Origin: an uncultured Bacilli bacterium
GTDB lineage: Bacteria; Bacillota_I; Bacilli_A; RF39; UBA660
Direction of reading: 5' to 3'
Assembly: GCA_910587535.1 (NCBI GenBank)
Contig: CAJUKM010000001.1
Coordinates: forward strand, 17,496-81,495
DNA length: 64,000 nt
Shown in pieces: positions 29,741 through 31,885 of this stretch (positions are counted from its first letter, which is position 1; each line of letters begins with the position of its first letter). Under the pieces are notes generated by a model. That model was not told the DNA's origin and did not search any database. It saw nothing but the letters and a program-made list of their open reading frames with translations. The translations under genes and the position numbers were made by a program.

Positions 29741-30480
29741 ATATAATTCTCCTCATATAGAACGTTTTCTAGGTACAGGCCGCCTGGTGGAGCTGGTGCA
29801 TATTCGATAACCTTTTTTCCAGTTTGGAGCATCTTTAAGATATCCTGTTCTTTTAATTTTCCGCTCCCAATCAAGATTAAAACTGCAACTAGATTTCTGA
29901 CCATGTAGGTATAAAACGTCTTTCCTTTAATACGAATAGTTATTATACAATCTTTTTCTTCTATGTCAATAGTTTCAATAATTGTTTCACAGGTTTTTTG
30001 TTTTCCTGTTACGAACGCTCTATAATCGTGTGGACCTATGAGAAGCTTTGAAGCGTTTTTCATTTTTTCTAAATCTAATTTTTTATTATAATTATATAAG
30101 TAATCTTCTTTTATCGGATCGTATATTTCTGTATTGATGAGATATTTATAGGTCTTAATTTTTACCGAAAATCTGGCATGAAAATGTTCATTTTTGACAT
30201 GTTCACAACTTTTAACAAACAGATAGGAAGATGTCTCCCGATTTATATAGCCTTTTAGTTTATATGGATCGATCTTCCTTTTTAAATCGAACATACAACA
30301 TTGGTTTAAAGCGTGTACTCCGCGGTCTGTTCGGCCAGATGAAATAACTTTAACAGGAGCTCCATCGAGTCTTTCTAAAATCTTTTCTAACTCTCCTTGA
30401 ATGGTCGATTCTTTTTTTAGTTTTTGCAACCCAGAATATTTTGAACCGTCATATGAGAATATTAAAACGAATCTATTCAT
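29737..30480 (-). CDS. truA: tRNA pseudouridine(38-40) synthase TruA
   Basis: FSYDGSKYSGLQ...GRTDRGVHA motif with the catalytic Asp. Confidence 0.93.
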   Translation of the reverse strand: MNRFVLIFSYDGSKYSGLQKLKKESTIQGELEKILERLDGAPVKVISSGRTDRGVHALNQCCMFDLKRKIDPYKLKGYINRETSSYLFVKSCEHVKNEHFHARFSVKIKTYKYLINTEIYDPIKEDYLYNYNKKLDLEKMKNASKLLIGPHDYRAFVTGKQKTCETIIETIDIEEKDCIITIRIKGKTFYTYMVRNLVAVLILIGSGKLKEQDILKMLQTGKKVIEYAPAPPGGLYLENVLYEENYI

Positions 30481-31109
30481 TTTACACTTCTATAAATTGC
30501 TTTTAAGAGGTCGTTTATGTCTTTATAGTAATCTAATTTTGCACCTTTTTTATTGGCTTTGTCGACGAAACTTTTTAATTCAGTATCGACTGGAAGCTTT
30601 CTGATATCTTTTCCACTATATGTGATCAATTCATTTTCTATTACTATATAGTGGTCTATATGTTTTAGTAAATTGTCGGGAGAGCAAGTCGTATAAATTA
30701 TTTTTTTAGAACACTTGGCTGCATATTTTTGAGAAGTTTTAAGTATTAGTAGCAAGTCCCTATAATTTAACACCATGTCTATATTGTCGAGCAAAATCGT
30801 TTTAGCATCGGATAAAAGAACTTTTAAAAACATCATTTTCTCTAATTCACTACTAGATAGAGATCTCACCTGTTTTTTTAGTAATTCTTTACTAAACTCG
30901 AATTCCTCTATTAAAGACTCTAATAATTTTTTGTCTGTCGTTTTTTGTTGTAAGAATCTTTTAGCGGATGAGAATTTTGGCAGACTAATTCTTTCGACTC
31001 CATATATATTTTCATATACATAGTTGCTGCTTGAATCTATTATTCCGTAAACTTGTTCTTTAGGAAATACTTTTGGATCAACATCAAAATTAGTATATTT
31101 TATTTCCAT
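30477..31109 (-). CDS. degenerate EcfA2-like ABC ATPase homolog lacking Walker A (probable pseudo-ATPase)
   Basis: LSSSELEKMMFLKVLLSDAKTILLDN corresponds to the ABC signature plus Walker B region (DN instead of DE). The N-terminal P-loop region is deleted, leaving only 210 aa. It is translationally coupled to truA. Confidence 0.6.
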   Translation of the reverse strand: MEIKYTNFDVDPKVFPKEQVYGIIDSSSNYVYENIYGVERISLPKFSSAKRFLQQKTTDKKLLESLIEEFEFSKELLKKQVRSLSSSELEKMMFLKVLLSDAKTILLDNIDMVLNYRDLLLILKTSQKYAAKCSKKIIYTTCSPDNLLKHIDHYIVIENELITYSGKDIRKLPVDTELKSFVDKANKKGAKLDYYKDINDLLKAIYRSVK

Positions 31110-31885
31110 AATGCACCTACTAACTTATCTTTATCAGTATAAATTGTTTTTAAGACGTCATAGTGATTGAGTTCTATACTAAGTTCAACCGTCATTGGCA
31201 ATTTAAAGCCTAATCTTTTTAATAAAGTATCTGTCTTTAAAACAGAGAGAGTATTTCCTTCGAGGATTAAAACGAAGTTATCTAGAACACAAAGGCGGTT
31301 TCCATAAAGGGCGTCTTCTAGGTTTGTCGTCACATTCAGTAATGTGATGTGGTGTTTTTTTACATAGGCAAAAACTCTCTTTTTAATCCGAGGACTTAGA
31401 CAAGAGATGAGATTATCTATTGCCAATATGTTGGGACATATTATCATATAGCGAAGTAATTTTATCAACATCTCTTGTTCTTTGGATAGTCTTACTATAT
31501 CTTTTTTTATGAATGTATCTAGTGAAAATAAAGCTTCTACTTCTTTGTATCTTTCTTCTATCTCCTTTGCATCAAAAGAAAGTTTCTTGAGATACATTAG
31601 AACTTCTTCCTTTAAAGAAGTGTTAACTATTTTAGAATCGAAGACGACTACGATTTCTCTTTTTAGTGTTTCGATATCATAAGAGCCTATTTTTAGACCT
31701 TTATAATAAACTGATGCGTTTGGCAATTTATGACAAAGCATCTTTAATAGCGTCGACTTACCAGAGCCGGATGTTCCTATCATCGTTACGATTTCTCCTG
31801 TTTCGATTTCCAAATTAAAGTCGTTAAAGGCATTAGTGCCATTATATGCAAAATTGGTATTTCTAAATTCTAAAACTTTTTCCAT
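31100..31885 (-). CDS. degenerate EcfA1-like ABC ATPase homolog (Walker A intact, signature/Walker B/H-loop degenerate)
   Basis: GTSGSGKST is intact. The signature is LSKEQ rather than LSGGQ, Walker B is ILAIDN with no catalytic Glu, and the H-loop His is absent. The C-terminus is EcfA-like (LLKRLGFKLPMTVEL). Confidence 0.65.
   Translation of the reverse strand: MEKVLEFRNTNFAYNGTNAFNDFNLEIETGEIVTMIGTSGSGKSTLLKMLCHKLPNASVYYKGLKIGSYDIETLKREIVVVFDSKIVNTSLKEEVLMYLKKLSFDAKEIEERYKEVEALFSLDTFIKKDIVRLSKEQEMLIKLLRYMIICPNILAIDNLISCLSPRIKKRVFAYVKKHHITLLNVTTNLEDALYGNRLCVLDNFVLILEGNTLSVLKTDTLLKRLGFKLPMTVELSIELNHYDVLKTIYTDKDKLVGALWK

Follow-up and report, generated by a model that had tools for sequence, protein, structure and literature searches.

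Degenerate descendants of EcfA1 and EcfA2 are retained under purifying selection upstream of truA in uncultured gut and rumen Bacilli

The 64,000-nucleotide stretch of DNA analysed here (the window; positions 17,496 to 81,495 of contig CAJUKM010000001.1, assembly GCA_910587535.1) stems from an uncultured Bacilli bacterium and carries, on its minus strand and upstream of truA, two overlapping open reading frames (ORFs) derived from the ATPases of transporters of the energy-coupling factor (ECF) type. Based on the ORFs and on profile, structure and motif comparisons, the first, termed A1-like (31885..31100, 261 amino acids (AA)), is an EcfA1-derived pseudo-ATPase and the second, termed A2-like (31109..30477, 210 AA), a remnant derived from EcfA2. 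Both proteins descend from EcfA1 and EcfA2 and have kept the fold, while the residues for hydrolysis and the motif for the docking of EcfT have been lost. Both ORFs are kept by purifying selection as strong as that on truA and are not dead genes. It is likely that the pair consists of selection-maintained descendants of the two ATPases which have turned into a non-hydrolysing, EcfT-independent heterodimer, predicted to be expressed and to have a role other than transport.

The A1-like protein matches the Pfam model ABC_tran with 61 bits, and its top NCBIfam model is TIGR04520 (ECF_ATPase_1, E 6e-32). Although this is the best-scoring family, the score of 111.1 bits misses the curated cut-off of 315 bits. 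A profile of the A1 family found the EcfA1 of L. delbrueckii (8bms_A, 5jsz_A) as the best full-length match in the PDB (E 2e-36). The alignment runs end to end, with residues 2-261 against 3-277 of 8bms_A, and pairs LLKRLGFkLP...LVeaLWk at the C-terminus of the profile with MLKRIGLDIPF...LVQSLWQ of EcfA1 up to the last residue. The AlphaFold2 model reached a predicted local distance difference test score (pLDDT) of 94.6 and a predicted template modelling score (pTM) of 0.90. Its best Foldseek matches are all ECF-type ATPases, namely CbiO 5x40_A with a query-normalised template modelling (TM) score of 0.87, EcfA1 6zg3_F with 0.84 and 8bms_A with 0.83. Model, structural matches and profile agree on an ECF/CbiO-type nucleotide-binding domain (NBD) of the ATP-binding cassette (ABC) fold with a C-terminal helical dimerisation domain. 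The weakest A1 matches, P0110 and P0113, were considered as canonical ECF ATPases of the same organisms and rejected, since they are parts of unrelated ABC systems, one of the MacB/FtsX type and the other a BMP-type importer.

For the motif calls, the PDB alignments supplied canonical EcfA1 and EcfA2 sequences, to which both proteins were aligned. The A1-like protein retains Walker A (GTSGSGKST, residues 37-45, 31751-31777), the A-loop Tyr14 and the Walker-B Asp157, and the nucleotide-binding residues Y14, G37, S41, G42, K43, T45 and D157 are conserved to at least 90 % among 94 sequences. Apart from the Walker-B Asp, the catalytic ABC motifs of EcfA1 are lacking, and the same applies across the family. 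The signature reads LSKEQ instead of LSGGQ (residues 133-137, 31475-31489), Asn158 occupies the position of the catalytic Glu in Walker B (ILAIDN, 153-158), and the H-loop (LLNVTTNL, 182-189, 31319-31342) has a Thr where the His is expected. In the Q-loop, FD replaces the canonical FQ, so that the Gln is gone (VVVFDSKIV). The Q-helix is gone as well, with the canonical VFQNPDNQFV aligning to VF---DSKIV. High conservation is seen in the C-terminal dimerisation helices (LLKRLGFKLP...LVGALWK, 31103-31225).

For the A2-like protein, the match to ABC_tran is 16 bits, below the cut-off of 25, and comprises only profile positions 79-134, from the signature to Walker B. Its family profile matches CbiO and EcfA2 structures at E 6e-9 to 8e-7, and ABCE1 and ABC-F proteins are among the weak sequence matches. 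The AlphaFold2 model (pLDDT 91.4) is an ABC NBD, and its best query-normalised TM scores were obtained with EcfA2 chains of folate ECF transporters (8bmq_B 0.65, 7nnu_B 0.64, 5jsz_B 0.62). Compared to EcfA2, about 70 N-terminal residues with the Walker A region and the antiparallel ABC-beta subdomain are deleted, and the complete NBD with Walker A that defines EcfA2/EcfA' (TIGR04521) is not present. The protein keeps a signature-like LSSSE (residues 84-88, 30846-30860), of which L84 and S85 are invariant or almost so in the family, a Walker-B-like strand, TILLDN (residues 104-109, 30783-30800), and a near-invariant C-terminus, ANKKGAKLDYYKDINDLLKAIYRSVK (within 30480-30569). It has no H-loop His. 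The conserved Asp111 was considered as the D-loop Asp and dropped, since the alignment puts it three residues past the Walker-B position. Descent from EcfA2 is evident from the position as second gene of the pair in every locus, from the graded series of related proteins described below and from the closest structures. The full-length A2 of 280 AA from an EcfT-bearing relative (L007) matches EcfA2 4huq_A with E 4e-38. These alignments bear out an earlier sequence-only reading of the window, which had described a retained Walker A, LSKEQ, a D-N Walker B and a missing H-loop His in A1, and the loss of the P-loop segment with an LSSSE...ILLDN remnant in A2.

Both proteins are EcfA1 and EcfA2 by descent, yet fail the functional definition of these ATPases: the score is under the curated cut-off, the catalytic motifs and the Q-helix are lost, and no EcfT is adjacent. 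In canonical EcfA/EcfA', the Q-helix receives the coupling helices of EcfT. Its motif is xPD/ExQ-phi, located after the Q-loop. Neither the junction of A2 and truA nor the rest of the annotated 64-kb window contains a CbiQ/EcfT gene, so that the absence of ecfT from the block, also pointed out earlier, extends to the whole window. There is likewise no S-component in the annotated window.

The degeneration of every catalytic motif could suggest neutral decay, in which case the two ORFs would be pseudogenes that have yet to gain stop codons, and the A2 gene of one related metagenome-assembled genome (MAG), L020, is indeed frameshifted. The distribution and the evolution of the proteins speak against this. 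Among 5.8 billion proteins, the A1-like protein has about 100 clusters (90 % identity) of relatives with 44-70 % identity, nearly all exactly 261 AA long, and the A2-like protein has 68 such clusters with 33-53 % identity and 207-217 AA. Lengths are thus conserved down to 33-44 % identity. An exhaustive search of 1.84 billion representatives with the A2 profile returned 17 A2-type proteins at E <= 1e-30 and 272 at E <= 1e-10, and relatives of 180-280 AA form a continuum that matches the profile through the C-terminus.

Ratios of nonsynonymous to synonymous substitution rates (dN/dS) were calculated codon-based from unsaturated pairs of related loci and pooled over six pairs; comparisons within the species (L001-L004 with the window) had too few differences to be used. 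The pairwise values are 0.05-0.20 for A1, 0.11-0.22 for A2 and 0.04-0.18 for TruA, and the pooled values are 0.14, 0.15 and 0.14, respectively, compared to 0.06 for both RplM and RpsI. By region, the N-terminal parts of the two proteins show 0.15-0.17 and the C-terminal domains 0.11-0.12. Among the loci of related species, the A2 gene is frameshifted only in L020 (6777-7417), a co-assembled MAG. This is probably an assembly indel, because the downstream frame is intact and conserved. With pooled dN/dS values equal to that of truA, conserved lengths and confident models for both proteins, neutral decay can be given next to no weight. The sequence-only reading had named frameshifted copies in relatives as a sign of decay and suggested selection for a non-catalytic role instead. 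The search for such copies yielded this single case and does not support decay, while the dN/dS values of 0.14-0.15, the lengths and the models support the suggested selection. The pair combines a kept fold, lost catalytic residues and purifying selection, which are the characteristics of pseudoenzymes. Since the ORFs are under purifying selection in a form unfit to act as a normal ABC ATPase, a pseudo-ATPase scaffold is the best reading.

Related loci, numbered with the prefix L, were collected from a scan of one genome per GTDB species, which yielded 38 loci, and from additional contig look-ups. All of them contain A1, A2 and truA, and most also have divIC upstream and rplM-rpsI downstream. 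Sorted by the lengths of the two proteins, they form a reduction series of six types. Type I (L007, L028) has an A1 of 254-272 AA, an A2 of 280 AA and an EcfT of 251 AA, which matches CbiQ with 27 bits. EcfT is absent from all other types, in which A1 and A2 measure 258-267 and 273-277 AA in type II (L006, L022, L024), 256-262 and 259-262 AA in type III (L009, L025, L026), 261 and 208-214 AA in type IV (the window, L005, L010-L021), 213-231 and 193-208 AA in type V (L030, L037, L039, L040, L044-L046), and 152-160 and 182-187 AA in type VI (L029, L031-L036, L038, L041-L043, L047). At the smallest extreme of the series stands a pair of 157 and 182 AA. The A1 proteins of type VI have lost their entire N-terminal half and with it the Q-loop and the helical subdomain. 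Types V and VI escape detection with Pfam.

According to a motif table of 33 loci, the H-loop His is found in no A1 or A2 of any type, and the catalytic Glu is merely sporadic. Walker A is kept in the A1 proteins of types II-IV and of part of type V, lost in type I and in all of type VI, and missing from every A2 of types II-VI. None of the EcfT-less types has a Q-loop or Q-helix motif, and remnants of the Q-helix exist solely where EcfT remains. Common to 33 of 33 representatives are the second half of the RecA core and both C-termini, with the consensus eG.t..vLkeekLLKRLGF.LPf.vdLS..L..Y....iY.d...Lv..LWk for A1 and F.......g..l..Y.d..eLlKaIYR.v for A2. In canonical EcfA/EcfA', the C-terminal helices are the constitutive dimer interface. 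In a rough neighbour-joining tree of TruA, RplM and RpsI, the types group by lineage; missing genes distort this tree, and an order of events is therefore not claimed. Type I is not a direct ancestor of the other types, because it lost the P-loop of A1, whereas types II-IV lost that of A2. The host genomes belong to uncultured gut and rumen Bacilli, labelled by their submitters as Bacilli, Tenericutes, Erysipelotrichaceae, Mycoplasma sp. or Candidatus Onthocola (Bacilli incertae sedis). PMC10868615 discusses uncultured Bacilli orders that evolve reductively, and it is plausible that these lineages belong to them.

The type I loci (L007 8001-10343; L028 25-2421) are peculiar in that a conserved EcfT with a weak CbiQ match lies beside an A1 without Walker A. 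Their A2 keeps Walker A and the DE of Walker B, and has lost the H-loop His and LSGGQ. Type I may therefore be a single-site or otherwise unusual ECF module. The existence of this sister lineage, with EcfT beside an equally motif-poor pair, is a point in favour of the possibility that the window pair still energises an ECF transporter, perhaps with weak or unusual catalysis, together with an EcfT and S-components encoded elsewhere. The nucleotide-binding residues of A1 are kept, and the EcfT search covers the 64-kb window only. A search with the type I EcfT from L007 returned only the EcfT family of that lineage itself (more than 200 clusters), with none of its matches on contigs where an EcfT-less pair is known, and is uninformative regarding the window genome. 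However, neither subunit has a catalytic Glu or an H-loop His, A2 has no P-loop, and the window contains no EcfT or S-component. Furthermore, the EcfT-docking Q-loop and Q-helix are gone in all EcfT-less types and partly kept beside EcfT, and sister lineages keep the pair even though A1 has been cut to 157 AA without its N-terminal half. A distantly encoded transporter is therefore considered very improbable. Catalysis, docking motif and the adjacent EcfT have been lost, yet the constraint is similar to that on truA, a housekeeping neighbour of the essential type, and the pair, although repeatedly reduced, is not lost; therefore, the EcfA/EcfA' dimer would have a function other than transport.

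The arrangement of the genes needs to be considered as another possible reason for their retention. From 5' to 3', the order on the minus strand is divIC, A1-like, A2-like, truA, two paralogous genes, rplM and rpsI. The upstream neighbour divIC (32253..31966) is separated from A1-like by a spacer of 80 nt. This spacer contains a promoter-like site with an extended -10 TG (GTGAAA-17-TGcTATAAT, 31938..31910, 10 of 12 consensus matches), called by consensus match only. As read from the sequence itself, a Shine-Dalgarno (SD)-like AAGAGG (31897..31892) precedes the ATG of A1-like by 6 nt, and comparable sequences lie upstream of A1 in related loci. The two genes of the pair overlap by 10 nt, ATGGAAATAA (31100..31109), where the end of A1 (...LWK-stop) and the start of A2 (MEI...) are read in different frames, and the SD-like AGGTG of A2 sits within the LVG codons of A1 (GGTG or AGGTG among related loci). 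The stop codon of A2 and the start of truA share 4 nt (ATGA). The truA gene (30480..29737) encodes a tRNA pseudouridine38-40 synthase of 247 AA with the catalytic GRTDRGVHA present and a score of 181 bits for TIGR00071, with a cut-off of 143. Its 3' end overlaps the first paralogous gene by 4 nt. Reading the sequence confirmed the ORF coordinates and the 10-nt and 4-nt overlaps as first described. A scan found no terminator-like site on the minus strand between A1, A2 and truA, and a comparison of 25000-33500 with Rfam revealed no leader or riboswitch at E <= 0.1. The genes rplM and rpsI (26411..25534; Pfam Ribosomal_L13 and Ribosomal_S9) represent the ancestral 3' end of the ecf operon and are preceded by a promoter-like site (26506..26478) found with a promoter consensus scan. 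The block of A1, A2, truA, rplM and rpsI has left the rpoA-rplQ end of the ribosomal superoperon and now lies behind divIC.

Given this layout, the ORFs might be kept only as an expression architecture of promoter, SD sequences and coupling for truA-rplM-rpsI, with the proteins themselves being irrelevant. In addition to the promoter-like site upstream of A1, the near invariance of the overlaps with their embedded SD sequences is consistent with this explanation. Of 40 non-redundant loci, 38 have the 10-nt overlap between A1 and A2. The exceptions are an overlap of 19 nt and the type V locus L046, in which a 218-AA ORF of no known function (6634-7290) lies between A1 and A2. At the junction of A2 and truA, 26 related loci have an overlap of 4 nt and a further 7 one of 1 nt. 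However, the constraint on the amino acid sequence extends over the full length of both proteins, as shown by the regional dN/dS values, and invariant residues are found distant from the junctions. Repeated large in-frame deletions always leave the same structural core, and rplM has its own promoter-like site. Moreover, ecfA1-ecfA2-ecfT has been cleanly deleted from the ecf operon in a species of Alicyclobacillaceae (PMC8046335), so such a deletion is tolerated elsewhere in Bacilli. Since this deletion exists, the operon does not need these ORFs for the expression of truA-rplM-rpsI, and their retention is therefore not forced by it. A purely architectural role is thus regarded as quite improbable.

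Inserted between truA and rplM are two paralogous genes of about 530 AA (29740..28157 and 28132..26522), whose secreted or lipoprotein-like products share 27 % identity (E 5e-43) and match no Pfam or NCBIfam family. The sequence-only reading had called both lipoproteins and had proposed a module in which the pair is repurposed to work with them. The first part can be upheld for the first paralogue, which has a lipobox-like Cys, but not for the second, which has an N-terminal hydrophobic anchor without a Cys. In favour of a partnership, these genes lie next to the block on the same strand, with an overlap of 4 nt between truA and the first paralogue. In the related loci compared, however, they were found only in the species of the window and, more weakly, in L012, while in other genomes the gap between truA and rplM is empty or contains unrelated genes, and the A1/A2 family has a far wider distribution. 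In addition, a promoter scan found a perfect sigma-70-like promoter (TTGACA-16-TATAAT, 29969..29942) within the truA gene, on the minus strand and about 200 nt upstream of the first paralogue. Because the paralogues are confined to the window species and L012 and lie behind their own promoter, they are not considered partners of the pair, the proposed module is not upheld, and its probability is minimal. In the type IV loci L005 (12145-12798) and L014 (4106-4759), the gap is occupied by a gene for a membrane protein of about 204-217 AA (PF06541, CmpB-like), described as 'putative ABC-transporter type IV'. Such a gap gene as a new membrane partner was rejected, as PF06541 CmpB-like genes occur only in these two loci and the remaining content is heterogeneous or absent.

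Taken together, a non-hydrolysing heterodimer descending from EcfA1 and EcfA2 of a group-II ECF vitamin transporter remains the likely explanation. The strongest conservation across all variants lies in the C-terminal helices, through which the constitutive EcfA-EcfA' heterodimer would still be formed, and translational coupling by the 10-nt overlap with its embedded SD sequence would yield the two subunits at a ratio of about 1:1. The variant in the window could have at most one composite nucleotide site, consisting of the A-loop Tyr, Walker A and Walker-B Asp of A1 and the LSxSE of A2, which may bind ATP but would not hydrolyse it. This site might act as structural glue or as an ATP-sensing clamp rather than as a motor. 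If the pair is non-hydrolysing and independent of EcfT, its role would therefore not be to energise transport, but would presumably be structural or regulatory, with truA as the sole constant genomic neighbour.

Several points weigh against this explanation. Expression, dimerisation and nucleotide binding of the pair are all predicted from sequence. Nucleotide binding is not a universal function of the family, as the A1 proteins of type I, some of type V and all of type VI have no Walker A. The extreme C-terminal conservation coincides in part with overlapping signals, since the start and the SD sequence of A2 lie in the LVGALWK codons of A1 and the SD sequence of truA lies within the YRSV codons of A2. 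No partner of the pair was identified. Because other lineages have lost even Walker A, nucleotide binding would not be the core of the retained function, and this core would therefore lie in the dimer itself. To go one step further, the EcfA-EcfA' heterodimer could have a second, transport-independent function tied to TruA or to translation and residing in the C-terminal module and half of the RecA core, although we regard this as an unlikely proposal. If true, it would explain the persistent linkage of ecfAA' and its coupling to truA-rplM-rpsI in Bacilli, and the gut lineages would have shed transport and EcfT while keeping only this second function, down to the pair of 157 and 182 AA.

The remaining content of the window is that of a replication-origin region. 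It holds dnaA (58925-60346) and dnaN, the GC skew changes its sign near 60 kb, rnpA-yidC-jag lies on the opposite strand and nusG-rplKAJ at the far end. In between are dnaX, recR, mfd, metS, ksgA, tilS, ftsH, parAB, rpsF-ssb-rpsR and dnaB. The window also has the sporulation-associated genes yabG, veg, spoVG, yabP and bofA and a SpoVT-like MazE-domain gene, whose label is based on its position only. These genes contrast with the labels 'Tenericutes' and 'Mycoplasma sp.' given to relatives by their submitters. The earlier description of the genome as AT-rich and reduced is borne out only in half: the GC content is about 32 %, but the window carries these sporulation-associated genes. In one metagenome copy from the same species (L003 4267-8447, JGI 3300006139), yabG (Peptidase_U57) is truncated to 168 AA. 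It adjoins an element that encodes a PemK toxin and sigma factors along with three large serine recombinases and that resembles the intervening elements found interrupting sporulation genes. Directly 3' of rpsI in the window (20835-24801, minus strand), there are an AIPR (abortive-infection-like) gene of 392 AA and an LRR_5 protein of 877 AA, which may constitute a small island for defence or of surface proteins. In the relative L005, rpsI is immediately followed by tilS.

ECF transporters are the main route of vitamin uptake in Firmicutes and are pursued as antibiotic targets. Their two ATPases are not known to serve any purpose other than driving EcfT and the S-components. The reduction series represents a natural deletion experiment, in which the minimal kept part is the C-terminal heterodimer with half of the RecA core. 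This is striking for the field of ABC transporters, and every organism concerned is uncultured. The names assigned by NCBI are 'energy-coupling factor ABC transporter ATP-binding protein' for A1-like and 'hypothetical' for A2-like. Due to these names, metabolic reconstructions of gut Bacilli could wrongly infer ECF-type vitamin uptake.

A search of the accessible literature for EcfA proteins described as degenerate, orphan or pseudo-ATPases found no account of catalytically dead EcfA pairs without EcfT. With the EcfA1 and EcfA2 of group-II ECF transporters from L. delbrueckii (5JSZ, 5D3M, 8BMS) and L. brevis (4HUQ, 4RFS), the pair has descent and fold in common. The end-to-end alignment of A1 includes the C-terminal LKRxGxxxP...LVxxLW motif, and as in the canonical ecf operon the pair is located upstream of truA-rplM-rpsI. 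In contrast to EcfA1 and EcfA2, it has no catalytic Glu, H-loop His, Q-loop Gln, LSGGQ, Q-helix or adjacent EcfT, and A2 has no P-loop.

In several heterodimeric ABC proteins, one of the ATP sites is degenerate and non-hydrolytic, as in CFTR (NBD1 site), TAP1/TAP2, TM287/288 and BmrCD. The pair resembles them in its asymmetric NBDs, in binding residues that are kept while the catalytic base and the His are gone, and in ATP as a possible structural ligand. However, those proteins still possess a fully competent second site as well as a transmembrane partner, whereas the pair has its second site deleted and shows no evident membrane partner. SufC, ABCE1, the ABC-F factors and PhnK/PhnL of the C-P lyase are soluble ABC proteins without a role in transport, twin-NBD assemblies that act on cytosolic partners, and SufC and PhnK/L are among the fold matches of the pair. 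Unlike the pair, all of them have intact motifs and are active ATPases. A2 resembles ABC-F and ABCE1 only in the signature and Walker-B segment, which is no evidence of a common function. Lastly, the Alicyclobacillaceae species (PMC8046335) shares with the window the same ancestral operon and the loss of the transporter function from it; while all three genes were deleted there, here the two ATPase genes persist as ORFs that are constrained yet shrinking, and only ecfT was lost from the operon.

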